Positions 830 to 18,484 of a stretch of 64,000 nt of DNA are shown piece by piece. The notes under the pieces are model-generated. The model had not been told where the DNA came from. It did no database searches and was given only the letters and a program-made list of their open reading frames with translations. Positions within the stretch are counted from its first letter, which is position 1; each line of letters starts with the position of its first letter. Source of the DNA: an uncultured Alphaproteobacteria bacterium (lineage in GTDB: Bacteria; Pseudomonadota; Alphaproteobacteria; RF32; CAG-239); assembly GCA_934254925.1 (NCBI GenBank), contig CAKQMD010000002.1, positions 17,841 through 81,840 of the forward strand. The letters are read 5' to 3'. Position numbers and translations under genes: made by a program.

Positions 830-977
830 ATATTTTTTTATCCTTTCCTTATGGCGTTATACCTTCCCAGCTATTTTAGCCTTCGCTTGATATCTCAGCT
901 TTTTTGCTGATAAGAAAAGAATAAAAGGAAAAAGAAATTTATGTAAAAACACTCAAAATGACGGTTTTTGTTTGTAA

Positions 978-2192
978 CTATTTGTTTTTGCGATTTTTAT
1001 AGCGACTTATTCTCTTAATCTCAGGAAGTTCAGCTAAGTATTCCAAATCAGGTATATAATATTGAGGAGCCTGAGGGGAATATTCAATATGGCTACAACT
1101 TCTCCAGTTTTTCATCAATTCGCTTGTTTCGCCAATATGTGAGTAAAACGCCTTTTGACGTATGTTTAATATGGCTAAGGCTGTTTGACGATTACACCAA
1201 TTAATGTATCCTTTTTTTTCGTAATTAACGTCAGAATGAGGTTTTAAAATTTTATAATAATATTGTTTTAGGCACTCATTGGTGGCACTTATACTATAAT
1301 ATGATTGAAGTACCGTTTTATGTGGATAACTTTTTTTGTATTTTTCTAATAAATTAATACCAGATGTTTCAGAAATATTGAAAATTTCAGCCAAGTTACG
1401 TATGGTTAAAGTATATTCAGGATCATCATATCTAAGGGCTAAATCAGTTTTAACAGCAATTTCCATGGGACGATTTCCTGTAACCTCATGAACTATATCA
1501 TAATTTTTAGGTTCTTTTGCAGGATTTTGAGTTCTTACTAAATTTATAAACGTATTACTTCGATAATCATATTGTGTTGATCTTGTTTGAGTATACAAAA
1601 AGTTGCAATAATGGACTAAAGCCGTTTTTTCTAACTTAGCGCTTTGGTAAGGGTATATAATATGTAATGCAGCGTCATATACGGACGAAATCTTTATATG
1701 ATTTTCAACAATAATTTTTTCTATTTTACTTAAAAAGTTTTGGATTTCTTCAGAGAAAGGATGTATTGACTGTCTATCTCTTTTATAACAAAACGAATTA
1801 AACAGTTGAACATAATCACGAAGATTTTCAAAACTAACCGAATCAATCTGAAAATCACCTTCATAACAATAAAAATATAATTTTACAGTCTGGTTATTAT
1901 TTAAGTGTCTTGATGTATTTATAGCTTCGAAAATTCGCGAAAAATAATCCAACGCATGCCATATTGTTACTCTATCTATATAATATTCTTTATTAGATAA
2001 TTCATAGGATTTGATAAGCAACGGCATTAAATTTTCAGCTAAAAAGCCCAAATAGTTATTGTTAAAATGAAAATTTTCTTGAACAAAATTTTTCTTACAA
2101 AGAGTTATTATCCGACGAATATAAGTATCAATGGTACTGTCTTTACGATTTTCGGATAACCATTTTCTAAAATTTTCTTCCAAGCCAATCAT
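978..2192 (-). CDS. Hypothetical 404-aa protein, N/Y/K-rich, in an AT-rich island
   Basis: Long intact ORF in the clearly lowest-GC stretch of the window. I recognise no conserved motif. It is followed by about 460 bp of AT-rich non-coding DNA up to tRNA-Gln. Confidence 0.55.
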   Translation of the reverse strand: MIGLEENFRKWLSENRKDSTIDTYIRRIITLCKKNFVQENFHFNNNYLGFLAENLMPLLIKSYELSNKEYYIDRVTIWHALDYFSRIFEAINTSRHLNNNQTVKLYFYCYEGDFQIDSVSFENLRDYVQLFNSFCYKRDRQSIHPFSEEIQNFLSKIEKIIVENHIKISSVYDAALHIIYPYQSAKLEKTALVHYCNFLYTQTRSTQYDYRSNTFINLVRTQNPAKEPKNYDIVHEVTGNRPMEIAVKTDLALRYDDPEYTLTIRNLAEIFNISETSGINLLEKYKKSYPHKTVLQSYYSISATNECLKQYYYKILKPHSDVNYEKKGYINWCNRQTALAILNIRQKAFYSHIGETSELMKNWRSCSHIEYSPQAPQYYIPDLEYLAELPEIKRISRYKNRKNK

Positions 2193-2658
2193 AAAAAAAC
2201 TCCTAATTTTATCTTATATTATCAAGATTTAAGAAAACGTAAAGCCCAAAATATATAAGAATAACCTTTGACTTAGCTATATCATAGGTTGTAAAAACAT
2301 AGCCTACTAAAAAAGGCTGGAGTCATTTTCTATCTCACGCGTTATAAGGGCTAGTTAAAAAATGGCTTTTTTTGAAGAGATGTTGTTTAAGCAGAAAAAA
2401 ATTTAAGAGCAAAAATAAATCATCGTCAACGTCAAAAACTTTTATTTTAGGCAGGCTTCAAATCCGGCTTTGGATAAATGATAATCCCAAAAGGCTATGA
2501 AAGAATGCCTTTAGTTAACTTATTGAAAAATAAGAAAAGTCATAAAAAGTAGTCCGAAGATGATTCATATTTAAGCCTGTAATGATATAAATTTTCGGAC
2601 TCGGTTAAGTTGTTGATTTATAAAGAAAAAATCGCCATTTCTGACGATTTTTGAACTG

Positions 2659-5311: not shown

Positions 5312-5755
5312 TTAGGACAGGCGTGACAATTTGACGAATTCCTGCAACAATTCGGCAAAGGCGGAAACTTCCAGTCGGCGTCGCAGGTTGATGCGGTCTA
5401 TCAGAGCATAAGAATTGTCTTCGGCATGGTAAATGATGACGCTTTCGGAGGTTCGGCCGAGAATCAGGCGGGAACGGAAAAAGTCGTAGCGTTTGTAGGG
5501 CTTGTTCATTGAGACGAGGTCAGGAAAAGTATAGTCTCCGCTGGTTCTTAAATGCGGCTGACATGAGAAAAGTTCAATGCCGTCAAAGCTGAGGCCGTCG
5601 GAGAGACCGAGAAAGGCGGCATAGGCGTCGGGGATCGGCGGCGAATCGTTTTGGCAAAGGGTTTTACTGCAGTTTTTCAGATCTTGCGCGGCGGCGGGAG
5701 CGAAAGAGACACAGCCGGGTTGGGATTTGAATTTGGCAAGCAGTTTATCAATCAT
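5312..5755 (-). CDS. SUKH-1 (SMI1/KNR4)-like immunity-type protein
   Basis: The ~147-aa protein carries the motif PIPDAYAAFLGLSDGLSFDG (cf. the LPxDYxxFLxxxNGG of SMI1/KNR4). Its C-terminal ...LGRTSESVIIYHAEDNSYALID...SAFAELLQEF resembles the SUKH C-terminal core. The in-frame ATG at 5753-5755 overlaps the last codon of the upstream gene (ATGATTGA), so that is the likely start rather than the TTG at 5773. Confidence 0.5.
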   Translation of the reverse strand: MIDKLLAKFKSQPGCVSFAPAAAQDLKNCSKTLCQNDSPPIPDAYAAFLGLSDGLSFDGIELFSCQPHLRTSGDYTFPDLVSMNKPYKRYDFFRSRLILGRTSESVIIYHAEDNSYALIDRINLRRRLEVSAFAELLQEFVKLSRLS

Positions 5756-6335
5756 GATAAATTTTTCCTTCAAACCAGGGAATGTAGATCAGGTAACGGT
5801 TTTTCAAAAAGCCGCTTTCAATCTGAAGGTCAAAAAGATGATGGAGGCGGGCATGGACAGGATGGGTTTTGACCAAAGAAAAATTGTCGGGTTCCAGACT
5901 GCCGCCGAAATCAAACGGAATCTTCAGATGAGTATTGAAATTTTCGGGGGCATAGCCTTGTTTGAGCTGGTGAATGGCCATATTGTCAAGTCCGAGGCTT
6001 AAGCAGGCTTCGGTTTCCTCGTAGGCTAGGCGTTTGAGGAAAACGGCGCGGGCTTTGATGTATTCCTCAAAACTGCGTTCCATCTCCGGCCAGGTTTGCG
6101 GCGTATAGTCACGGAGCCGTAGCGTGATGTCTTTGAGGCGGTATTCGGCAATTTTTTGCTGCAGGAGAGCCTGCATCTCTTCCGGGTGGGGAATATTTTC
6201 TCCGTCTTGCCATCTGGTTTCCAAGGGCTTATGTCGCCGGCGCAGGTCCTCATAGGCTCGGAGAAGGGACGTCGGCTGCCGGGGAGCGGTCGAAGAAGAG
6301 GGCGATTGCCGACGATTTTTAGTCCAGTCCCACAT
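5748..6335 (-). CDS. Putative toxin-like protein with an HNH/betabeta-alpha-Me-like motif
   Basis: The 195-aa ORF starts 16 nt after the VirD4 stop with a GGAAG RBS. Its C-terminal stretch AIHQLKQGY...FDFGGSLEPDNFSLVKTHPVHARLHH matches the GG-x-DN-x-H-x3-H spacing of HNH nucleases (the colicin DNase and AHH/SHH toxin families). The overlapping downstream SUKH-like gene fits a toxin-immunity pair. Confidence 0.4.
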   Translation of the reverse strand: MWDWTKNRRQSPSSSTAPRQPTSLLRAYEDLRRRHKPLETRWQDGENIPHPEEMQALLQQKIAEYRLKDITLRLRDYTPQTWPEMERSFEEYIKARAVFLKRLAYEETEACLSLGLDNMAIHQLKQGYAPENFNTHLKIPFDFGGSLEPDNFSLVKTHPVHARLHHLFDLQIESGFLKNRYLIYIPWFEGKIYHD

Positions 6336-6350
6336 TTGGTCGCTTCCGTT

Positions 6351-8576
6351 TTATGAATCCGCCGGCGGCGGCGTTTCTTCCAATTCCTCGTCAGTAAATT
6401 CGGAATCGTCAAAATCTTCCTCAGGGTCGTATTCAATGCCGAGTTTGGCCAGCATGTCGTCATTAATGTCTTCGCGCTGGGCGACGATCCAATCCGGAAC
6501 GTAGGGGGCCGGCGGCAACTTGGCTTGAGCTTTCATTTTGGGGTCAAGATACCAGCGGGGCGAATCGGCCATAATCGGGCGATCGATAAAGCCTTGCATC
6601 AGGACGACTTGCTTAAGCATGGGCAGGCTGAGGAGCTGCGTGGCGCTGATGACGGAAGTCCCCTGCAATTGGTAAGTGACGTTTTTGGCAAAAGGATTGG
6701 CTGATTTGCTCATGCCTTCGCTCTTGGAATATGAGTTGGTTTGTACGGTTTTGTTGCCGATCATTTTTGAGAAGCGTTGAGCCGTCACCTCGTTGTTTTG
6801 GGAGAGGATGACCTTGCTGGCGGTGGTGGAAATGACGGTTTCAAGATCGTCTTTGCCGTATTTTCCCGAGATTTGTCCCAAGTCTTGTCCGATTAGCAGA
6901 TAGGAGACCTTTTGTCCACGTCCGACGGCGGGGCCGTTGATGACGGCGGTCAGCTTGGGCATGGTGGGGAACTCGTCCAAAACAAACAAAGCCGCATAGG
7001 GACCCATTTTGCCGTCCGTTTTATGAACGGAATTCGGGGTATTGGCAATGAGGTAGTTGGACATCAGGTCAATAAACGTTCCGGAGATGACCGACAAGGC
7101 CTTGGCGTCTACCTGGTTGATGGAAAGATAAACGGAGATAGGCTTCCATTCGCCGGTGATGGGGTCTTTCATGCCGCGGAGATCTTTAAAGGCGATGTCT
7201 GAGAAGCTGGTGCGCGCCACGACGGCGGAGTTTTTGAAAATCCCGATGCCGGAAAAAGCGGTGGACAAGACGGAACCGCGTTCTTTGTCGGGCATGGAGC
7301 TCAATTGGCTAAGCTCAACCACACAGCGCTGGGAATAGCCGAATTTGCGGGCTTCGGCGATGGCTTCCTCCAAAAGGTCGCGCATGGGGTCTGCCATGGC
7401 GGCCATTTGGTCGCCTTCTTCCAAACGGCGTTTGATGTCTTGCGATTGCTTGATCTGGGCTTCGGTGATCCATTCCAGAATCATGGCGATGCAGGCTTCG
7501 CGGCCGATCCATTTTTCCGGCAAGAGGGACCAGGTGCCGATGGGCAGGTAGTTGTCGATGGTCAGCGTGCCGTTGCGTAGGTCTTGAACGGCTCTGGCGG
7601 CCATGGGATCATGCATTTCAAGGTAATACCCTTCCAAGACCTTTTTGTCTTCTTCATCAAGTTTGCCTTCATAGACGCGGCCGATGAAATAGTCGTTGGC
7701 GCGGGCTTTTTCGCATTTGAAGGCGATGAAATGGATGAAGCCGGTCAGAGCGGCACGTCCGGTTTTGGACCAGTGCGGATCGGCGCCGCCTTTGGGATCT
7801 TCCACCAAAACGTTGGTCATGGAGTCAATATACATGTCGCGTTCCGGTCCGGGATCGGGGATTGCGTTGGGAGAAAGCGGGTTCCAGCTGGGATAGTAAA
7901 TCCCCTCGGCCGGGTTGTCTTCCGCGCCCCAGTTGATGACAAAGACCGGACCGACTTTGGCACGGGCGCCGGTGGTATTGTAGCACAGTTCGGGCTTGGG
8001 GTCGTTGACGATGATGCTGAGCTTGGGGGAATTGAAGATCGTTGGGATCACGATGCCGGCGGTTTTACCTGTTCCCGGAGGGGCGCAACACAAGGTGGAC
8101 AGGGTTTCGTTCATCATCAGCAGGTGGCCTTTGAAGCGGCCGAGAACAATGCAGAAACCTTCCAGCAGCTTCATTTTCTTAATGTCTTTCAGCGTGGCAA
8201 TGCGGCCGGCGCCGTGAATGTTGGATTGGAAGCGGTAGGGATTGGTGACAACGCCGACCAGCAAGCCGAGAGGAAGGCTAAGGAACGGCAGAATCGGCAG
8301 CCAAAGACTGAGGGAGAAGGGGCCGTTGTAGTTGTGGAGTTGTCCGAACCAATGCCAATAGCGGGAGAACAGATATCCGGGATCGGACAGAACAATGCCT
8401 AAAAAGCGCGAGACGCTTTGCAGCGACTGCTGCGAAAAGCCGGCACCGACCAAAAAGCCCAAAGGCAGGGCAATGACGGCAAGAAAGATCGTGACAAGCA
8501 GAGTTATGATTACGGTTAGGGCGACCCAACGGACTGCGCTGTTATATTCTTCCCATTCTTCACCGGTTTTAGCCAT
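6351..8576 (-). CDS. virD4: Type IV secretion coupling protein (VirD4/TraG/TraD family ATPase)
   Basis: The 741-aa ORF has N-terminal TM helices, Walker A LCCAPPGTGKTAG, a Walker B-like FVLDEFPTM, and an acidic C-terminal tail EYDPEEDFDDSEFTDEELEE. Confidence 0.85.
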   Translation of the reverse strand: MAKTGEEWEEYNSAVRWVALTVIITLLVTIFLAVIALPLGFLVGAGFSQQSLQSVSRFLGIVLSDPGYLFSRYWHWFGQLHNYNGPFSLSLWLPILPFLSLPLGLLVGVVTNPYRFQSNIHGAGRIATLKDIKKMKLLEGFCIVLGRFKGHLLMMNETLSTLCCAPPGTGKTAGIVIPTIFNSPKLSIIVNDPKPELCYNTTGARAKVGPVFVINWGAEDNPAEGIYYPSWNPLSPNAIPDPGPERDMYIDSMTNVLVEDPKGGADPHWSKTGRAALTGFIHFIAFKCEKARANDYFIGRVYEGKLDEEDKKVLEGYYLEMHDPMAARAVQDLRNGTLTIDNYLPIGTWSLLPEKWIGREACIAMILEWITEAQIKQSQDIKRRLEEGDQMAAMADPMRDLLEEAIAEARKFGYSQRCVVELSQLSSMPDKERGSVLSTAFSGIGIFKNSAVVARTSFSDIAFKDLRGMKDPITGEWKPISVYLSINQVDAKALSVISGTFIDLMSNYLIANTPNSVHKTDGKMGPYAALFVLDEFPTMPKLTAVINGPAVGRGQKVSYLLIGQDLGQISGKYGKDDLETVISTTASKVILSQNNEVTAQRFSKMIGNKTVQTNSYSKSEGMSKSANPFAKNVTYQLQGTSVISATQLLSLPMLKQVVLMQGFIDRPIMADSPRWYLDPKMKAQAKLPPAPYVPDWIVAQREDINDDMLAKLGIEYDPEEDFDDSEFTDEELEETPPPADS

Positions 8577-8590
8577 TTTTCATACTTCCT

Positions 8591-9877
8591 TTAAGCAATG
8601 CTGCGAATGATTTTCTTGATCTTTTCCAAAGTTTCTCGTCCGGCCTTGTTTTCGGCTTCATCCAGAGTCTTTGAGAACAAGTTTAATTCCTTCGGCGTTC
8701 CCCTGTCAATCCTGCAGACGGAAATATTCATGTCATTCCAGATGTCGAACATGTCTTCGGCATTGATGATGTTGCCGATCTGGATAATGACATAGGCTTT
8801 TATTTCCAAGGGAATGTCGGCTTCCGTCAGCTTTTCGGCCAGGGCATTGCGGGCGATATCGATTTTGCGGACCGGGGAAATGCGGTGCGAGCTTTCGGAA
8901 AACCACAAGGGTTCCTCATCGTTGAAGCGTTCTTCGTCGGCCAGCCAATCTCCCGGCTCTTTGTCATTGAGGCACAAGACGATTTCTCGGTCGGAAACCG
9001 CGACAAAATCGATCAGGATGTTTTTGACGGTGATGGCGCTGATGATATCATAGCCTTTTTGACGGATGACTTCATAAGTGGAATTGGAGGTTCTGCCGCC
9101 GGAATGGGCAAGCGGTGCCGCCGATATTGCGCTTGAGGCGGAAGCTGCCGGTTGTTGCTGGTTGCGGCGATTGTTGCCATTGTTACGGTTGCGATTGTTT
9201 TTGTTATTGGTTCGGCGTCCGGCAGGGGGAGCGTAGGGTTCGGGCAATGGGGGCGTCGGCGCCGTTTTTTCTTCTTCTTTTTCATCAAACATGTCGATGT
9301 TGAAGTCAAAGTCGTCGTCCTCGTTGTCAAACTGGAACAAGGAGTGGTCAAAAGTTGCCGGTTTGGTTTCCGTTACCGTCGGTGCGGTCAGAATCGGTGC
9401 TTGCGGAATAGGTTGGGGAGCTGGGCGTGCCGGCGAATCGTTATAAACGTTTTCGTTGATTGGCGGCCGGATGCTGCGCGGACGAATTTCTTTATAGGAC
9501 TTTTTCTTCTTGATCCCTTTGGAACCGGCGGTGCGGGTGATGATTTTTACCGGGCGGGCAAAGAAATGATTGAAGATCTTGAGCGGCAGAATAAAAAGAT
9601 CAGAGAAAATCCGGTTCCACTGAATCAGACTCAGCGCCGCCCAGCCAGTCAGCCAGAGCGGGATGAAAGTCAGAATGATGAGTACAAAAGCCCATTCCTT
9701 GGTGTCTTCAATAACCCAATTGGCGTCCCAGACTTCCCAGGCATGGTGCCAATGTGAGGGGCGGAAGATGTCAAAACGCCAGTTGCGCAGCAAAATGACT
9801 CTGATCCCTTCCAGAAAGAAGATGCTCCAGCAGATTCCGACGACAAAAATACGTATCAAAATCAATAAGGGTTTCAA
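8591..9877 (-). CDS. Membrane-anchored protein with a P/N/R/Q-rich low-complexity linker and a C-terminal globular domain (possibly PD-(D/E)xK/NERD-like)
   Basis: TTG start with a GGAG RBS. The N-terminal ~100 aa hold 2 TM helices with W-rich loops and are paralogous to the 164-aa product of the next gene. The linker reads PAPQPIPQAP...NNKNNRNRNNGNNRRNQQQ. The C-terminal ...ILIDFVAVSDREIVLCLNDKEPGDW... is reminiscent of nuclease-related domains; that assignment is tentative. Confidence 0.65.
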   Translation of the reverse strand: MKPLLILIRIFVVGICWSIFFLEGIRVILLRNWRFDIFRPSHWHHAWEVWDANWVIEDTKEWAFVLIILTFIPLWLTGWAALSLIQWNRIFSDLFILPLKIFNHFFARPVKIITRTAGSKGIKKKKSYKEIRPRSIRPPINENVYNDSPARPAPQPIPQAPILTAPTVTETKPATFDHSLFQFDNEDDDFDFNIDMFDEKEEEKTAPTPPLPEPYAPPAGRRTNNKNNRNRNNGNNRRNQQQPAASASSAISAAPLAHSGGRTSNSTYEVIRQKGYDIISAITVKNILIDFVAVSDREIVLCLNDKEPGDWLADEERFNDEEPLWFSESSHRISPVRKIDIARNALAEKLTEADIPLEIKAYVIIQIGNIINAEDMFDIWNDMNISVCRIDRGTPKELNLFSKTLDEAENKAGRETLEKIKKIIRSIA

Positions 9878-9936
9878 AGTCTTGTTTTCTCCGCATAATC
9901 TTTTTTATCCTAGGATAATCCAGATTGGTTAATAAG

Positions 9937-10431
9937 TTATGATTTCTTGTTGTAGTCTTCCAATTTATTTAGGACCGCCGAGCGGATGGAGCTGCTTTCT
10001 TGCGGTGCTTCCGGTTTGATGGCGGCGATTTCTTTTTTTATGTCTTCAATGACGGCGGCCATGCTGCGGGTATTGCGCAGCAGGATCCTTTTGGAACCAT
10101 GGCCGTATTTACGAATGATGTAGCGGTTGTAAATTTGGAAAGGCCATAAAAAGATCTCCAGATAATCGACCCGATTGAGGCGTCGCCAGCCCCAAAACCA
10201 AAATATGACCACAAGCAGCAGCGTGATGAAAAACCAATAATCCGGCGCCGCTTTGATGACGCCGTTGTTGTTCCAAAAATCGCTGATTTTCTGCCAATCC
10301 GCAGGAGACATGAGATTAAAATGCCATAGGTAATAGACGATGATGGAGGCCGCGAACAAATAAACGGCGCTCCACAGACTGCCGATTAAGAGAAAACGGA
10401 AGAATTTCAACAATTTTTTCAGCATGGTCAA
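9937..10431 (-). CDS. Small 2-TM membrane protein, paralogous to the N-terminus of the 8591-9877 product
   Basis: 164 aa. The pattern W..F...W...W..VI...WF-TM2-GW..L aligns with residues ~20-95 of the 428-aa protein. Its start overlaps the stop of the upstream gene (ATGA). Confidence 0.6.
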   Translation of the reverse strand: MTMLKKLLKFFRFLLIGSLWSAVYLFAASIIVYYLWHFNLMSPADWQKISDFWNNNGVIKAAPDYWFFITLLLVVIFWFWGWRRLNRVDYLEIFLWPFQIYNRYIIRKYGHGSKRILLRNTRSMAAVIEDIKKEIAAIKPEAPQESSSIRSAVLNKLEDYNKKS

Positions 10432-12575
10432 TTCGTGTTGGTTCGTTTATTCATAATTTTTTGAGCAATCTGGGTATATTTTTGAAGTTGGGGATTGGAT
10501 ACATTTCCGATCTTGCCTTCCATAACAGCGTTAGCCTCTTCTTTTGTCAGTTTATTCTTATCATTTTCTCCTGTCTGTCCATTCGTCTCATTTTGAACAT
10601 GCTCGTTTATTTCCTCCTTGCCAATTCCCATTCTTTGCAATGCCTTATTTAATCTGTCGCGTGCTTCCTTATTGCTTTTTTGCTGTCCAGTTATCACATC
10701 AATCTCCATGTTAATATTGCGGAGTTCCTTATTGAGTTTGTTCATTTTGTCAGGGGCTGCCATAAGAGCGTCTCTGATACCTTCTTTTTCCTCCTCTCGG
10801 GATGTTTCTTGCTTTTTTTTCTGATCTGCGGTCTGTTGTTCTTCTCTTTGTTCTTCTTCCTGACGGTCACGGTTTTTTTGTTCTTCGTTACCGTATTTTT
10901 TTAGGATGCCTTCCGCTTCCTTCAAGGCTTCGTTTCTTTCGGGAGTACCTTCCGGTTTGAATTTTTTGTTTTCTATCTGCGTTTGGACGGTTTCGGATGC
11001 TCTTGCCGCCGCATTTTGAAGTTGCTCTTCTTGTGCTTGAAAACGTTTTTGTGCTTCTTGGTCGAGAATATATTTTTCGAGCATAAATTGGGTTATTGTC
11101 TCATTGTTAATACCCTGATCTCTCAAGTCTTTCTCCGCCGGGGAGAGTTTGTCCAGATCTTCGTCGGGAACGTTTTCAAGTATTGATTTAAACTCTGATA
11201 CGGCTTCCAATATTTCTTCTCTTTGTTCTTTATTGCCGGGATTGGTTTCATCGTTGCCGGCATCAAGTATAAAAGAGATCTCTTTTGTGATCTTTTCCTC
11301 TTCCTCCTCGTTCAAGGAAATTTTTGCAAGGATTGTTAGTTTTTCGTTGCTGATTTCTTTGTTGATTTCTTTGCGCAGGTTGGCATGGTATTCTACAATG
11401 GAATGTTGAACCTCCTGATATACTTCATCATACAGGCTTGCTGTATTTTCGCCTTTGAAATAGTCAGGATTGTTCATCTGTTTGTCCATCATTTGGGCAA
11501 AGGTGAGTTGGTGCGTCAAGACTTCAAGGGCTTGCCCTTTTTGCAGCGTTTGGAAAATTTGGTTTACGGAAGGGGCATATTCACCTGTTGACTGCGGATA
11601 TTGGGCTTTGATGGCCTCATCATAATCTCGATAAACATATTGTTTGCCGCTGAGGTATAGTTCCGCCTCATAAAGATAGGCCGCTCGGTCGTTTTCTTTC
11701 AATTCTGTCAAATGGTTCGTATTATCATATTGCTTATACCAAGTGTCGGGGGTGTTGGCCGCTTCGGTCAAAATGGCCGCTTGAATATACGGCGGGACGT
11801 CTGTGTCCTTAATTTTCCCGTCTTTTAAGTTTTGTAAAAAGGTTTTAAAACCGCCGTTTTCTTCATTTTGGATCTTTTGCAGGATCTTATCCACATCGTA
11901 ACCGCCATATTGGTTCATATGGGCATTAATAATCGTATTAAGGGGAATATCTCTATTGTTTTTTATGGCGGTTAAAAGCTTTTTATTCAGGCCGCGTTGT
12001 CTTTCATAGAATCGTCTGATGTTGCCGCAAGAGGTTACTTTTTCAGCACGGTCATGTACGTTCTCGTCTATCAGGCAGAGTGTTTCATAACCTTCCAAGG
12101 TACGCAGGGATTGTTGCTGTTGATTAGCATTCGTTCTTTTGGTCTTTATTTCCTCACGAACGTCTTTGATCAGGCTCCAGGTATCTTTGCCGACGGCTCT
12201 GCCGGCTTTGTAGAGCAGGCCTCCGGCATATCCAAAGATTTCATCGCCGGCTTTGTTTAATCCGGCCAGGAAGATTTCCTTGAACAGAAAATCGGTAATA
12301 TCGCCTTCTTTGATTTCAAACTTGCCCTTTTCAGGATCATAAATGTCTGCCTCATTACCGCCGTAGCTGATAGTCGGCTTTTTCGTGTCGTTGGCGTTAG
12401 CTTCTTGTCTACTTTCTTGCGTTTCTTCGCCTGGTAAGGTGAAGTTTGTGAAATCAGGTAACTTTTCCCCGGTTGTGAGGGTTGGGGCTGGGGAGGCGGA
12501 GGTTTGATTAACTTGTAGTTTTTTTTCTGTTAGCTCTCTGATGGCATTTGCTGTGCTGGTGTTTGCTGTGCTCAT
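10428..12575 (-). CDS. Large acidic, E/K/Q-rich coiled-coil-type protein (715 aa), effector-like
   Basis: ATG with an AAGGTG RBS. The protein is soluble with long charged low-complexity stretches (EEQREEQQTADQKKKQETSREEEKE) and no recognisable catalytic motif. Its GC appears lower (~40%) than that of the flanking virD4. Confidence 0.65.
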   Translation of the reverse strand: MSTANTSTANAIRELTEKKLQVNQTSASPAPTLTTGEKLPDFTNFTLPGEETQESRQEANANDTKKPTISYGGNEADIYDPEKGKFEIKEGDITDFLFKEIFLAGLNKAGDEIFGYAGGLLYKAGRAVGKDTWSLIKDVREEIKTKRTNANQQQQSLRTLEGYETLCLIDENVHDRAEKVTSCGNIRRFYERQRGLNKKLLTAIKNNRDIPLNTIINAHMNQYGGYDVDKILQKIQNEENGGFKTFLQNLKDGKIKDTDVPPYIQAAILTEAANTPDTWYKQYDNTNHLTELKENDRAAYLYEAELYLSGKQYVYRDYDEAIKAQYPQSTGEYAPSVNQIFQTLQKGQALEVLTHQLTFAQMMDKQMNNPDYFKGENTASLYDEVYQEVQHSIVEYHANLRKEINKEISNEKLTILAKISLNEEEEEKITKEISFILDAGNDETNPGNKEQREEILEAVSEFKSILENVPDEDLDKLSPAEKDLRDQGINNETITQFMLEKYILDQEAQKRFQAQEEQLQNAAARASETVQTQIENKKFKPEGTPERNEALKEAEGILKKYGNEEQKNRDRQEEEQREEQQTADQKKKQETSREEEKEGIRDALMAAPDKMNKLNKELRNINMEIDVITGQQKSNKEARDRLNKALQRMGIGKEEINEHVQNETNGQTGENDKNKLTKEEANAVMEGKIGNVSNPQLQKYTQIAQKIMNKRTNTN

Positions 12576-12655
12576 GGTATCACCTTGGCGTTAATCTTTT
12601 AATCTGTTGTAATTTTAGCATTAAAGTTTCTTTTTGTCTATATTTTTTTCTAAAA

Positions 12656-13609
12656 TTAAATTTTTAATTTTTTGATGAATTCACCGATTTCCTTGTTGAT
12701 GCGGATACCGTCTTCAGGTTTGCTTTTGATCAGCCCGAACAGGCGCGGCGGAATTTTGGAAACGTCTATCGGTGCATAGGTTGCGGGGTTGGAGATCAAT
12801 ATTTTATAAGCGCCGTCGGCGTCTTTCTGTGCGGTTTTGAAATAGTTGGTCACCAAGCGTTCGGCGTCAATCGGGAAGTTTTTGGCGGCGATGGCGGCAA
12901 TGAACTTTTGCATCTTTTCCTTGCGTTTTTGGTGTTCTTCGTAAATCCTTTTTTCGATTCGGTGCTTGCGAGCCTTAGCTTTGCGCATATTGTAGGCGAG
13001 TTCGCAGCCTTCGATCTCAATTAAGACTTCGACATAAGAGATCAGGGCCAGCTGCAGGGTTTCATCAGTGGTTTTTTCGGCAAATTCGAGGATTTCCTCG
13101 TCTTTAGCTGAGGCGTTTAAGGATTTTAAGCGTTGAGCATGACAGGCGATCATGATATCCCAGCCGCTGAGGACGTCGGTGGTAAAAAATTTACCGATCT
13201 TGGGTTTGTAACGGAGATAAAGCATCTCAGGCTTTATCAGAAATTCCGGCATGTTTAGGTTGTTTTCTCGGCCCATTTTTCGTACGGTGTCGGAAAAATT
13301 GCGGTAAGCGTCGTAAAGGGCGCGCTCTTCCTCGTATAAATTGTTGACGACGGCGTTTTCTTCCTCCGAGAGAGATAGCTGTGTCGGAGAAGGTTTGTCG
13401 TTGTGCTTGGCCTCTTTCAGGTCTTCTTGGCGCTCTTCGATGTCTGCCAGTTCCTGATTGATAAATTCATTCAGCAGATTTTCAAAGTCGTCGTTGTCGG
13501 TGTCTCTTTTGATGTCTATCCCGCTGATTTCGTTATTGATGACTTCACTGTCAATGTCGCCGATAAGGTCTTCAATGTTGGGAGTGGAGAGTTTTGACGG
13601 TTCAGCCAT
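12656..13609 (-). CDS. Acidic hypothetical protein (317 aa)
   Basis: ATG with an AAGGAGG RBS, 11 nt downstream of the stop of gene 13621-13905. The N-terminus is D/E-rich. No recognised domain. Confidence 0.6.
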   Translation of the reverse strand: MAEPSKLSTPNIEDLIGDIDSEVINNEISGIDIKRDTDNDDFENLLNEFINQELADIEERQEDLKEAKHNDKPSPTQLSLSEEENAVVNNLYEEERALYDAYRNFSDTVRKMGRENNLNMPEFLIKPEMLYLRYKPKIGKFFTTDVLSGWDIMIACHAQRLKSLNASAKDEEILEFAEKTTDETLQLALISYVEVLIEIEGCELAYNMRKAKARKHRIEKRIYEEHQKRKEKMQKFIAAIAAKNFPIDAERLVTNYFKTAQKDADGAYKILISNPATYAPIDVSKIPPRLFGLIKSKPEDGIRINKEIGEFIKKLKI

Positions 13610-13620
13610 AAGCGCCTCCT

Positions 13621-13905
13621 TTAATGCAGTTGAACGGTTGAAAGCCTTTTGGCGGTTTGCGGATCATAGATGATAATTCGGTCCTCAAGTCCGCCGTCGC
13701 GTACCAGCAGGTAAAGCAAGCCGTCCTGCAGGCGGAATTGGTAAATGTTGCTGCCCAACGGTTCTCCGAGGCGACTGACTTCCGGCATGGGAGCCGACGG
13801 GGTTTGGGCACGGCGATACAGCGTGTGGAGAAGCAAAATGCTGCCGGCAATTAGTAAAAAAGTGATGACAAAGACCAGGTTTTTTATCAGTTTCAATTTG
13901 TCCAT
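13621..13905 (-). CDS. Small signal-anchored protein (94 aa), first gene of the VirD4 operon
   Basis: An N-terminal TM helix (LVFVITFLLIAGSILLL) is followed by a short beta-rich domain. The stop lies 11 nt before the next gene's RBS. It is divergent from rluD across a 71-bp intergenic region. Confidence 0.45.
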   Translation of the reverse strand: MDKLKLIKNLVFVITFLLIAGSILLLHTLYRRAQTPSAPMPEVSRLGEPLGSNIYQFRLQDGLLYLLVRDGGLEDRIIIYDPQTAKRLSTVQLH

Positions 13906-13976
13906 TCCAGGCTTCCTCTTGCAAAATTGCGATTAACGTGTATTGTAATATAAATTTAGGAGAACCGCAATCAAAT

Positions 13977-15935: not shown

Positions 15936-15966
15936 CCGCTTGAAGAAAACGGGCGTTTTTTACGGT
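15936..15966. terminator. Bidirectional terminator between rpoH and the convergent membrane-protein gene
   Basis: AAAAAAACGCCCGCTTGAAGAAAACGGGCGTTTTTTAC. Confidence 0.6.
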
Positions 15967-16466
15967 TATTTTTCAGACGGAGGAGTGATCAGGTCGCTTC
16001 CCCAGCCTTCGGCCAGCTTTTCCAGGCGGTTGTCTATCGTTTTCAGGCGTTTTTGCGTGGAAAGCTTGTAGAGAAAAATAAACAAATTGGGAACCTCATA
16101 GTACACGATCAGGCCGATGGCGGCAGAGCCCAGCATAATGATGAGGTTGAAGATGTTGCCGAGAATGTAAAAGGCTTCATGGATGCTGAAGTTGCTCAAA
16201 ACGTTCATGAAATAGATGAAGACACCGGCCAGGTTGAAGCAGCCGACAACCAGAAGTTTGGATGAATTTTTGGGATCGGTGATCAGCAAGGTTATTGTCG
16301 GCAGCAGTCCGATCATCAGGATCAAAACGGCGGGCAAAGTCGTCAACATCAATAAAAACAAAGCAAAAAACAGCATTGTCTTTTGAGTGATTGACAATCG
16401 GCGAAAAGCCGAAGCCAGACGGTTGTTATCTCCTTTTTTTCTGATTTTCTTCATTTCAGCACCCAA
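15966..16466 (-). CDS. Integral membrane protein (3-4 TM), co-transcribed with the kinase-like gene
   Basis: 166 aa with hydrophobic helices. Its start overlaps the end of the upstream kinase-like gene (16451-16466). Confidence 0.5.
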   Translation of the reverse strand: MGAEMKKIRKKGDNNRLASAFRRLSITQKTMLFFALFLLMLTTLPAVLILMIGLLPTITLLITDPKNSSKLLVVGCFNLAGVFIYFMNVLSNFSIHEAFYILGNIFNLIIMLGSAAIGLIVYYEVPNLFIFLYKLSTQKRLKTIDNRLEKLAEGWGSDLITPPSEK

Positions 16467-18484
16467 TGGATAACGTTAAGGATGAACGAACTGATCATGG
16501 TTAAGACGGCCAGAACGCCGGCAAATTTCAGCGCCAATTCGGTGGCTTCTTCGTCAAGTTTGTCGCCGCCGGTGATAATTCTGGTTTTCTCATGCAGCAG
16601 AGATTTAGCCAGAGCAGCCGCTTCCGTGTATTCGGCGCGGTCTTTTTGCCTTGCTTCCTCATTTTCAAGAATATCGCAAAAGTCGATGATTTTACCGCTT
16701 TTGGCGCGCTGGATGATCTCACGTTCAAGATGTTTTTGATATTTGAGGTTATGGTAGCTTTTGATTACCGGTTTTGAGACGCTGATCAGCCACTGACAGA
16801 GATTGAAAAGCTGCAACGGGCCGTATTTGTTTTGCATGTTGGCGTAAAGGCGTATGATGGCGCTGATGCGAATGTCGTCACGGGCGGCGTTAAGATCGGT
16901 GATGATGCCGTCGATTTTTTTGCCCATTTTGCAACGCAGATAGGCGATGATGTTGCGGTCGTAAGGGGGCGTTTCTTGTTTTTTCAGGGCGTAAGCGTTG
17001 TCCAGCGCCTTGAGGACTTTGGGCGCGGAAGTGACAAAATCGTTGCCGATCAAGGGGCTGATACAGGGTAGGTCTTCGTCGAAGTCATACATAATGCGGT
17101 CGATGCCGTATCCCATGTCCTTGCGGTTGATGTAAATGCGAAATTCCGCGGCATTGGTCGGTGCACGAAGGTTTTCTTGTTCCTGATACCAGTTTTTGAT
17201 GATGTCGGATGAAAACAGTGCATGAAAGTCATCCAGGTTTTTGTGTTGTTTTTGTGCATAAAAGATGGCTTTGGGGGCTCCATTGGGAAAAATGCAGGTG
17301 TTGTTGTAGCGAATGGGCAGACTGGGGGCAATCAGGACACAGATCTGCGGTACAAGCATTTCCTCTTTTATTTCTTCAGATTTGATCAGGCGTTCAATTT
17401 TGCTGATGAGTTTGTCGTTGTCAAGAGAGCTTTTGGCCCATTCCAGGATCTTGCCGGACTTGATGATCTCCAGTGCTTCTTTTTGATTGGTCATTAAGGC
17501 GTAGGCAACGTTACGGCTGTTGTAGTATTTTTCTCCGTTGACGATGAGGGCTTTGGGCGAGCGCTCACTCGGCGCCGGATTGGAAAAGCTGTTGGCTTTT
17601 CCTTCCAGAAAGTTGTAAATTTGGATGTAATTCCAGCGTTGAGCCGGATCGTCGTTGACCATGCCTTTAAAAAGGTTAACATAAGCGTTGGGAATTCGCT
17701 CTTCATTCGTGAGGGTTAGATAGCTGCCTTTTTTGAGTTTTAAGCGCAAAACCTCCGGTAAGGAAAGCTCTTTGAGCAGTTCTTTGCGGGTAATCAGACA
17801 AAGGGCGGTTACGCCGACGGCGTAAATATCGTCCTGATCCGTGCCGCTGCCGCGGCCTTCGGGATCAGACATCAGGCTTTCCATGGTTTCAAAGGCCGGC
17901 GGCTGATGAAAAGCGGGGAAAGAGGCGGCGCAATCCCCGACGATGATTTCATGGCGCATACGATCGCGGTAAAAGAGGTTATCCAAGCGGATGGAACGGT
18001 GCGTGATGGAATAACCTTTCAAGGCCTCGGCGGCGGAGATCATTGAGATAATCGCCGATTTAAGTTTGTCGGCATTAGCGGCGTAGTCGATGTCGTTTTC
18101 TGTAAAATCTATCACTTTACCGCCGAGAGGCGTTTGATAGATCAGTGCTTGGTTGCGGGAATTTTGCTTGGGATAGTCGATGATGCCGTACTCGACCATT
18201 TTCATCAAATTCGGGTTGTCAATGGATTTCAGATAAGGCAAAATGGCGTTGCGCGGCGATGTCTCGTTGCTGCAGACAAGAGCGAAAAGCTCGCGTTTGG
18301 CGTCTACCTTGTCATTGACTTTATAGGCAACGGCGCCGTTCATGTCCAAATGCGGCAAAGGAACGTCAAAGTTGATCTCATAACGCTCTTTTAACAAAAA
18401 TAAAGAAGAATTGGCCGGGGTTTGGCTTTTTTTCGGCGTTTCCGGCTTTGGTGCTTCTTCTGTCTGTTTTTCTTCATCAGCCAT
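16451..18484 (-). CDS. Eukaryotic-like Ser/Thr protein kinase-fold protein (probable pseudokinase) with a C-terminal transmembrane anchor
   Basis: The N-terminal ~300 aa show a kinase catalytic-loop-like HRSIRLDNLFY (HRD changed to HRS), a DFG-like VGDCAAS, and a subdomain IX-like DIYAVGVTALCLITRK. No glycine-rich loop is evident. A long C-terminal region follows, ending in a terminal TM helix LAVLTMISSFILNVIHWVLK. Confidence 0.55.
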   Translation of the reverse strand: MADEEKQTEEAPKPETPKKSQTPANSSLFLLKERYEINFDVPLPHLDMNGAVAYKVNDKVDAKRELFALVCSNETSPRNAILPYLKSIDNPNLMKMVEYGIIDYPKQNSRNQALIYQTPLGGKVIDFTENDIDYAANADKLKSAIISMISAAEALKGYSITHRSIRLDNLFYRDRMRHEIIVGDCAASFPAFHQPPAFETMESLMSDPEGRGSGTDQDDIYAVGVTALCLITRKELLKELSLPEVLRLKLKKGSYLTLTNEERIPNAYVNLFKGMVNDDPAQRWNYIQIYNFLEGKANSFSNPAPSERSPKALIVNGEKYYNSRNVAYALMTNQKEALEIIKSGKILEWAKSSLDNDKLISKIERLIKSEEIKEEMLVPQICVLIAPSLPIRYNNTCIFPNGAPKAIFYAQKQHKNLDDFHALFSSDIIKNWYQEQENLRAPTNAAEFRIYINRKDMGYGIDRIMYDFDEDLPCISPLIGNDFVTSAPKVLKALDNAYALKKQETPPYDRNIIAYLRCKMGKKIDGIITDLNAARDDIRISAIIRLYANMQNKYGPLQLFNLCQWLISVSKPVIKSYHNLKYQKHLEREIIQRAKSGKIIDFCDILENEEARQKDRAEYTEAAALAKSLLHEKTRIITGGDKLDEEATELALKFAGVLAVLTMISSFILNVIHWVLK

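Follow-up and report, generated by a model that had tools for sequence, protein, structure and literature searches.

A VirD4 coupling-protein locus conserved in uncultured gut Alphaproteobacteria

The rvh type IV secretion system (T4SS) of Rickettsiales is scattered, duplicated and inherited vertically (PMC2653234). Its coupling protein RvhD4 binds the C-terminal tails of effectors, and it was proposed that basal Rickettsiales use rvh against other microbes (PMC11077975). Here we describe an eight-gene block centered on a VirD4-type type IV coupling protein (T4CP), located in a 64-kb stretch of DNA (the window) from an uncultured alphaproteobacterium. The block is not a recent foreign insertion: uncultured gut Alphaproteobacteria have long carried it as a gene island passed on by vertical inheritance. 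With moderate confidence, we interpret it as the part of a VirB/VirD4 T4SS that holds the coupling protein and recruits substrates, the system as a whole being dispersed over the chromosome and vertically inherited in these bacteria. The established part of the model consists of an intact, constrained T4CP, its obligate pairing with a membrane-anchored protein (g428), its ancestral pairing with an HNH-like and a SUKH-like protein, and the presence of VirB genes on the same contig in one relative (L134). A search of the literature turned up no paper that describes a T4SS from these gut bacteria.

Among the closest described systems is rvh. As in rvh, the genes are chromosomal, vertically inherited and placed on well-separated islands amid housekeeping genes, and VirB8 is duplicated with VirB7 adjoining, in the order B8-B7-B8-B9 in L134. 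While rvh duplicates VirB4, VirB6, VirB8 and VirB9, the VirB8 duplication is the only one seen here, in the limited sequence of L134. A coupling protein that recognizes effector C-terminal tails, with a pentapeptide-repeat protein among the RvhD4 interactors, is a further point of likeness (PMC2653234, PMC11077975), as is the anti-bacterial use proposed for free-living basal lineages (PMC11077975). Major differences can also be observed. The virD4 gene of Rickettsiales is attached to virB8-B11, whereas here it is detached and part of its own operon. The partner families (g428 and its relative g164, g317, and gX, the gene at the position of g715 across relatives) are not described for rvh. The host belongs to a flagellated gut commensal lineage, with fliQR, flhB and motAB in the window, and not to an obligate intracellular one. 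The kind of system is already known; its new parts are g428/g164, g317 and gX, which have no described relatives. A broader proposal, possible but doubtful, is that abundant, uncultured Alphaproteobacteria of human and animal guts carry a core, vertically inherited, rvh-like dispersed T4SS in which the coupling protein and a new family of membrane-tethered nuclease-fold adaptors (g428/g164) deliver a DNase and fast-evolving acidic proteins, a free-living counterpart and possibly an evolutionary relative of the Rickettsiales system. In a stronger form of this proposal, the tethered PD-(D/E)xK domain would be a new DNA-processing partner of a T4CP, analogous to a relaxase.

The Legionella Dot/Icm system (DotL, DotM, DotN, IcmSW, LvgA) resembles the locus in gene order, with dotM followed by dotL and the T4CP thus placed directly after a membrane-anchored partner. 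The cytoplasmic domain of DotM aids substrate recognition, and dedicated adaptors widen the substrate range. In contrast to Dot/Icm, g428 has a PD-(D/E)xK fold, which the cytoplasmic domain of DotM is not known to share, and no relatives of IcmS or IcmW were found. The X-T4SS of Xanthomonadales and VbhT/VbhA of Bartonella are likewise VirD4-dependent, with a toxin and its cognate immunity protein encoded together and a presumed role in antagonism. Neither an XVIPCD nor a BID domain is evident here, in analyses that included no search aimed at either. The candidate toxin, a small HNH protein, shows no clear carrier domain, and the channel genes are not adjacent.

Layout and inheritance of the block

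Eight open reading frames (ORFs), all on the minus strand, fill positions 5312-13905 and encode proteins of 153, 195, 741, 428, 164, 715, 317 and 94 aa. Independent gene calls on public contigs with an identical VirD4 give the same eight genes, and an earlier note on this DNA had placed them at these coordinates with these sizes. They are given below together with a candidate promoter (TM, transmembrane):

13947..13974, minus strand: promoter-like site TTGATT-16-TATATT, candidate operon promoter (consensus scan only, weak evidence)
13621..13905, minus strand: g94, 94 aa, signal-anchored, DUF6476 (PF20082, 7.9e-8, above cut-off)
12656..13609, minus strand: g317, 317 aa, acidic, cytoplasmic, pI 5.2, no Pfam or PDB relative
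10428..12575, minus strand: g715 (gX position), fast-evolving acidic protein, no Pfam family
9937..10431, minus strand: g164, Trp-rich inner-membrane protein with two TM segments and a short, basic tail on the cytoplasmic side
8591..9877, minus strand: g428, two-TM membrane-anchored adaptor with a linker and a NERD-like domain
6351..8576, minus strand: VirD4-type T4CP, 741 aa, Pfam families above cut-off
5748..6335, minus strand: g195, HNH (beta-beta-alpha-Me) DNase-like protein, candidate effector toxin (motif and profile)
5312..5755, minus strand: g153, YrhA-family (SUKH/SMI1-KNR4-like) immunity-type protein (NF038335)

The promoter-like site lies 42 nt upstream of the g94 start, within the 5' region of the divergent rluD gene. 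Such sites number 15 in the region, compared with 8.8 +/- 3.1 in shuffled sequence, a slight excess. Gaps between the genes are 11 nt (g94/g317), 80 nt (g317/g715), 59 nt (g164/g428), 14 nt (g428/VirD4) and 15 nt (VirD4/g195). The g715/g164 junction is either a TTGA overlap or a 2-nt gap, the latter with the likelier ATG start of g164 at 10425, which gives a protein of 162 aa. g195 and g153 overlap by 8 nt (ATGATTGA) and are translationally coupled; the likely length of g153 is 147 aa, with the ATG at 5755. The spacing of 0-60 nt described in the note holds for the remaining gaps (at most 59 nt) but not for g317/g715.

We scanned one genome per species and obtained 270 species genomes with a VirD4 relative. 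Locus comparisons are based on the best 80 of these 270 (77-84% VirD4 identity), all from uncultured gut Alphaproteobacteria with titles such as 'Azospirillum sp. CAG', 'Proteobacteria bacterium CAG:495' and 'Ca. Scatocola'. NCBI taxonomy assigns Ca. Scatocola to Rhodospirillales, and we take the clade of relatives to be the GTDB order RF32. The flank was read over +/-10 kb around VirD4 in each relative genome and over the 64-kb window in the own genome. A metagenome scan seeded with VirD4 relatives yielded 80 further loci. Loci with a VirD4 72-84% identical to the window copy are referred to as the 72-84% clade.

In every locus with enough flank (80 genomes), rpoH-rluD is followed by g94-g317-gX-g164-g428-VirD4 in the same order. 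The six genes are therefore kept as a unit beside rluD-rpoH among the best 80 of the 270, and the description of an accessory operon inserted between core genes does not apply. The position between glyQS and rluD-rpoH is fixed on one side: the rluD-rpoH neighborhood is constant throughout the clade, while adjacency to glyS is found only here and in the closest relatives. Typical identity to the window proteins is ~80% for VirD4, ~75% for RpoH, ~62% for RluD, ~52% for g428, ~50% for g317 and ~35% for g164. The note had also observed differences in composition from gene to gene, which are real (GC content 0.54 in VirD4 and 0.42 in g715, with 0.48 for the whole window), but its conclusion of horizontal assembly is not supported. 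The GC content of VirD4 exceeds that of its own locus in 80/80 genomes (median +5%), over a range of locus GC from 0.31 to 0.53, indicating that the offset is a property of the gene and not a foreign signature. The fixed synteny, the identity of VirD4 above that of RpoH and RluD, and the GC tracking together indicate a clade-wide, vertically inherited locus.

These observations bear on two other explanations. The block could be a recently acquired mobile or accessory module, that is, the remnant of an integrative, conjugative or mobilizable element, or a defense island, between glyQS and rluD-rpoH. The VirD4 family is typical of conjugative elements, GC varies between neighboring genes and the glyS adjacency is not conserved in other genomes, all of which would agree with recent arrival. 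We nevertheless consider it very unlikely. Besides the identical position and gene order beside rluD-rpoH in 80 species genomes, the conservation of VirD4 and its constant GC offset, no relaxase or integrase domain is found in the 64-kb window, direct repeats were not reported either, and the genes flanking the block do not include a tRNA. PADLOC gives no match for any of the eight proteins, and in a comparison set of 72,556 plasmids g428 has zero matches and no plasmid T4CP exceeds 34% identity to VirD4.

Alternatively, VirD4 could be the functionless leftover of a lost T4SS, a reading that we find barely credible. The lack of VirB genes within 64 kb and the loss of the HNH/SUKH genes in many lineages would fit decay. 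However, VirD4 keeps 77-84% identity over 741 residues in 80 species, and even relatives of 25-28% identity share Walker A/B and many further invariant residues; the ORFs are intact in all loci and the partner genes are co-conserved. Both hypotheses, horizontal transfer and remnant, were rejected on the grounds of synteny, conservation and GC tracking and are effectively excluded.

The composition of the cassette changes with distance. In lineages with 55-68% VirD4 identity, nearly every locus with flank contains one or two copies of a g428-like gene, VirD4, HNH and SUKH. A g317-like protein and a second adaptor join from ~61% VirD4 identity upward, and g94 and the rluD-rpoH neighborhood are confined to the 72-84% clade. 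VirD4 relatives of 37-47% identity are solitary chromosomal genes amid housekeeping genes. Three independent, distant lineages encode, just upstream of an acidic-tailed VirD4, a pentapeptide-repeat protein whose C-terminus is very basic. These proteins (370-445 aa; L087 8795-9907, L088 8772-10001, L092 8660-9997) lie upstream of VirD4 or overlap it, and a comparison with g428 and g164 found no similarity. They echo cREM-4 of Rickettsia, an RvhD4 interactor.

The coupling protein and its partners

The 741-aa protein belongs to VirD4/TraG, with three Pfam families above their gathering scores (PF02534, 5.3e-57; PF12696, 2.5e-22; PF10412, 7e-18). Walker A (PPGTGKT) and Walker B (VLDEF) are both intact. 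K171 never varies in an alignment of 20 relatives reaching down to 25% identity, and conservation of G170, T172 and D534 in it is 90% or higher, which does not agree with the mutated Walker motifs of a degraded remnant. The protein has an N-terminal TM region with hydrophobic segments within residues 17-110, an all-alpha domain and an acidic C-terminal tail, whose last 20 residues add up to a net charge of -10 in all but one of the 80 orthologs. The identity, motifs and tail reported by the note are thus borne out.

The score of VirD4 reaches no NCBIfam VirD4/TraG/TraD equivalog cut-off; the best is 145 bits (cut-off 250), the VirD4 model PRK13897 gives 123 bits (cut-off 728), and the same holds for 10 family representatives. 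A family profile matches the solved T4CPs in the order Cag-beta (8DOL, 5e-9), TrwB (9e-4) and DotL (6SZ9, 4e-3), and the single sequence has no significant match among PDB sequences. The nearest cultured relative, 33% identical, is encoded on an Erythrobacter aureus megaplasmid, where it closes a complete virB2-B11-D4 operon; the best plasmid match has 34% identity. Judged by its sequence, VirD4 is an intact, strongly constrained and very divergent member of an unnamed T4CP subfamily. Membership in DotL/DotM was rejected, as Cag-beta outscores DotL, the g428 profile has no DotM match and the g428 fold is restriction-endonuclease-like. In a lineage with 64% VirD4 identity, an additional 317-aa ORF that clusters with the VirD4 family (L119 8952-9905) separates the second adaptor from the full-length VirD4; partial duplication or an artefact of ORF calling could explain it.

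VirD4 is always preceded by the two-TM protein g428. An AlphaFold model of g428 (59 orthologs) has two TM helices, a disordered linker of ~150 residues rich in Pro, acidic residues and Asn, and a confident C-terminal alpha/beta domain. This cytoplasmic domain contains the alpha-beta-beta-beta-alpha-beta core of restriction endonuclease-like folds; strand 3 is followed by an inserted, invariant acidic loop (residues 305-338) before helix 2 begins. The Pfam NERD model scores 14.9 bits, below its cut-off of 22.1, and no canonical D...(D/E)xK triad is apparent, as the invariant positions comprise D290 and two neighboring residues, D305 and K306. The sub-cut-off score, the non-evident triad and the inserted invariant acidic loop of ~30 residues set g428 apart from NERD/PD-(D/E)xK proteins and from MOBC-type relaxases. 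Comparison of the g428 family profile with PDB sequences gave nothing significant. We know of no described NERD/PD-(D/E)xK protein that is obligately paired with a T4CP.

The smaller g164, found in 78 of the 80 loci, aligns to residues 1-108 of g428 in blastp (7e-14), and hhalign also relates the two proteins (probability 98.7%, E 1.6e-16). By these comparisons, g164 is a truncated paralog of the N-terminal two-TM module of g428. In the lineages with 61-68% VirD4 identity, its position is taken by a full-length second adaptor. The g164 family profile found no relative among PDB sequences.

Across the eight proteins, Pfam, NCBIfam and PADLOC recognize VirD4, DUF6476 (g94) and YrhA (g153) only. 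The earlier statement that the partners match no recognized family is accurate for most of them, with g94 as an exception. In the 72-84% clade the block starts with g94, which 71 of 80 loci carry at a distance of 9-11 nt ahead of g317; it is absent from the cassette in more distant lineages. Orthologs of g317 occur in 73 of 80 loci with 43-56% identity, and homologs also in the lineages with 61-68% VirD4 identity. The C-terminal domain of the protein is conserved, as is its basic C-terminus (...GxFLKKLKV). Its family profile found no relative among PDB sequences and Pfam scans of individual members gave noise; the single-sequence AlphaFold model (pLDDT 41) is unusable.

At the gX position, 72 loci have one large ORF, of 437-755 aa across relatives, whose homology is seen by iterated search only (70 sequences recovered). 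The gX proteins contain N-terminal peptide repeats, a coiled-coil tail and a mostly basic C-terminus. KETTVNE-like tandem repeats are present in many orthologs (L001-L080) and are not obvious in the window copy. The sole strongly conserved element is a hydrophobic motif, GD-I/F-I-D/E-Y/F-L/M...W/V-L-L/I-A/G. In one metagenome-assembled genome (MAG SIG57; L039 2766-8700), g317-gX-(g164 fragment) is present as a tandem duplicate with two 533-aa gX copies, and a single g317 sequence appears under two protein accessions.

While g317 and g715 are acidic overall, their C-termini are net positive. This applies to 99% of the g317, 86% of the gX and 85% of the g195 orthologs, opposite to the acidic tail of VirD4. 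g317 is a candidate substrate or adaptor and g715 a candidate secreted substrate.

The last two genes of the block resemble an HNH toxin and a SUKH-type immunity protein. In g195, H136, N151, H161 and H165 are invariant across 25 sequences, together with PEN and GG motifs, in agreement with the HNH motif named in the note. The family profile aligns this H-N-H-H beta-beta-alpha-Me motif to the DNase domain of pyocin AP41 (E 0.047, weak). T, V or I stands in place of the first His of the colicin HH pair, and, in contrast to colicins, pyocins and polymorphic toxins, g195 has no receptor-binding, translocation, Rhs, CdiA or other delivery domain. Directly 3' of g195, g153 passes the cut-off of the NCBIfam YrhA family (NF038335, 4.1e-18, 65.7 bits, cut-off 55), which upholds the SUKH-like assignment; we take YrhA to be part of the SUKH superfamily. 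The sole PDB match of its profile is 2ICG (E 0.048), presumably an SMI1/KNR4-type protein, and the L134 ortholog matches Pfam SUKH_6 at 0.041 (weak). A nuclease with a SUKH-type protein is a classic toxin/immunity pairing in the comparative genomics of polymorphic toxins, and the translationally coupled order found here resembles it.

g195 is present in 27 of the 80 close relatives and is near-universal downstream of VirD4 in the lineages with 55-68% VirD4 identity; g153 always co-occurs with it. In the 72-84% clade, the pair is found in 23 of the 61 loci with at least 3 kb of downstream sequence. Elsewhere it is cleanly absent, with nothing substituted. Such clean loss, with the other genes of the operon retained, is more readily explained by dispensable toxin/immunity cargo than by a component essential to the mechanism.

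The partners also allow a T4SS-independent, DNA-centered machine, in which VirD4 would act as a DNA translocase with the tethered nuclease-fold domain of g428, in the role of a relaxase-like or DNA-anchoring nuclease, and a SUKH-restrained HNH protein, in the export, uptake or processing of chromosomal DNA and not in the delivery of a protein toxin. We regard it as unlikely. g428, VirD4, HNH and SUKH form one orthologous unit over deep divergence, which is machine-like rather than typical of exchangeable cargo, and no relaxase of the classical type is found nearby in the 64-kb window. MOBC relaxases are themselves restriction endonuclease-like. Against this machine stand the non-canonical active site of g428 and the linkage of VirB channel genes to the cassette in L134. 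Moreover, the HNH/SUKH pair is cleanly lost in ~60% of close relatives whose VirD4 is still ~80% identical, indicating that it cannot be mechanistically essential, and the toxin/immunity arrangement has the classic form.

VirB genes and the proposed secretion system

The note had reported that VirB and relaxase domains are absent from the 64 kb, and none was found in the window. Together with the plasmid comparisons, this agrees with its view that the locus is not a conventional T4SS or conjugative locus. Its description of VirD4 as an orphan fares differently in the relatives. Queries with VirB2, VirB4, VirB6, VirB8, VirB9, VirB10 and VirB11 against 3.1 Mb of collected relative sequence gave matches only in L091, L093-L106 and L134.

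L134 contains a VirD4 with 63% and a g428 with 47% identity to the window copies, as well as HNH and SUKH. On the same contig, 3.5-9 kb from the cassette, are genes for VirB8 (PF04335, 2e-10), a VirB7-like lipoprotein, a second VirB8 (3e-21) and VirB9/CagX (PF03524, 2e-12), beside a bitopic protein that is cut by the locus end. The VirB9/CagX protein (836-2359, minus strand) is long, with 507 aa, and has a C-terminal SPOR peptidoglycan-binding domain (PF05036, 5.7e-5). In L091, whose VirD4 is 47% identical, VirB11 (TIGR02788, 1e-44) is located 4.5 kb from VirD4, both solitary amid cell-division and other housekeeping genes. This VirB11 has 1352 cluster-level relatives with 79-84% identity, mostly from gut metagenomes and 'Alphaproteobacteria bacterium' MAGs. 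The gut VirB11 is always solitary and paired with a conserved, divergently transcribed gene for a 187-aa lipoprotein (L093 9361-10960; L099-L106 9363-10963). Pig-gut and human-gut lineages share 85% identity in this lipoprotein, a possible unrecognized T4SS component. At a distance of 7 kb from VirB11, L093 also encodes a VirB7-like lipoprotein and a VirB8-like protein, the latter with no PDB match and a marginal Pfam score. VirD4, VirB11 and VirB7/8/9 are thus found on separate islands among housekeeping genes (L091, L093, L099-L106, L134). VirB genes outside the block were recovered in part, on the cassette contig in L134 and near VirD4 in L091, and the orphan status of VirD4 is probably only apparent.

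A role in substrate recruitment or antagonism, as suggested by the note, remains the best reading, and we propose the following mechanism. In the inner membrane, a VirD4 hexamer and the g428 and g164 modules at its flanks would together form the receptor. Its acidic tail and the tethered g428 domain would capture substrates with basic C-termini, namely the HNH DNase and probably g317 and the hypervariable g715. VirD4 would then pass them to a VirB channel encoded by other islands (VirB11, VirB7/8/9 and others). The DNase may be delivered into competing bacteria, with the SUKH protein shielding the producer.

Several points weigh against this model. There is no VirB gene in the 64-kb window, nor within +/-10 kb of VirD4 in the 80 close relatives, and VirB4, VirB6 and VirB10 were found in no relative in the 3.1 Mb searched. 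Neither locus tags nor accession blocks tie the gut VirB11 clade to operon-bearing MAGs: NCBI locus-tag prefixes place VirB11 in SIG45 and SIG47 and the operon in SIG43, SIG57 and SIG59, and the protein-accession blocks of the RGIG MAGs do not match. VirB11 loci and operon loci share no genes and no tblastx similarity, and their tetranucleotide similarity is ambiguous. None of the 25 g195 members matches a Pfam HNH family, and the HNH assignment consists of the motif and the one PDB match to pyocin AP41. The g195-g153 pair is a single orthologous family throughout, unlike the swappable cargo of polymorphic-toxin cassettes. The roles given to g317, g715 and g94 derive from charge, conservation pattern and position only. 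Finally, two nuclease-fold proteins beside a DNA-translocase-type ATPase would also fit a role in DNA handling.

If the proposed secretion model is correct, it would define a T4SS subtype in a widespread, unstudied gut lineage, and the scattered, vertically inherited architecture of rvh would not be confined to obligate intracellular Rickettsiales. The known partners of coupling proteins would gain a new family, in which two-TM modules hold a restriction endonuclease-fold domain on a tether. The acidic tail matched to basic C-termini provides candidates for substrate choice by VirD4, and the HNH protein is a possible interbacterial DNase weapon in the gut microbiota. The locus is in addition a cautionary case, as an 'orphan' VirD4 that lies amid core genes and differs locally in GC can have been resident since ancient times and need not be a horizontal insertion.

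Other genes in the window

The rest of the 64-kb window is ordinary chromosome, with glyS, rluD, rpoH, fliQ/fliR/flhB, motAB, PFOR, mdoG, spoT, lepB, rnc and era. A low-GC patch (978-2500; 0.27-0.32, window mean 0.48) contains a 404-aa orphan ORF on the minus strand (978-2192) with no Pfam match. The patch adjoins tRNA-Gln (2659-2733) and could be a small foreign insertion.

A 677-aa Ser/Thr-kinase-like protein is encoded at 15966-18484 on the minus strand (Pkinase 2.6e-5, below cut-off; weak PADLOC match to MkoA). Its C-terminal residues are hydrophobic, a possible membrane anchor. The gene overlaps that of a hydrophobic, probably membrane-spanning 166-aa partner, and the pair is kept beyond rpoH in ~50 of the 80 relatives.

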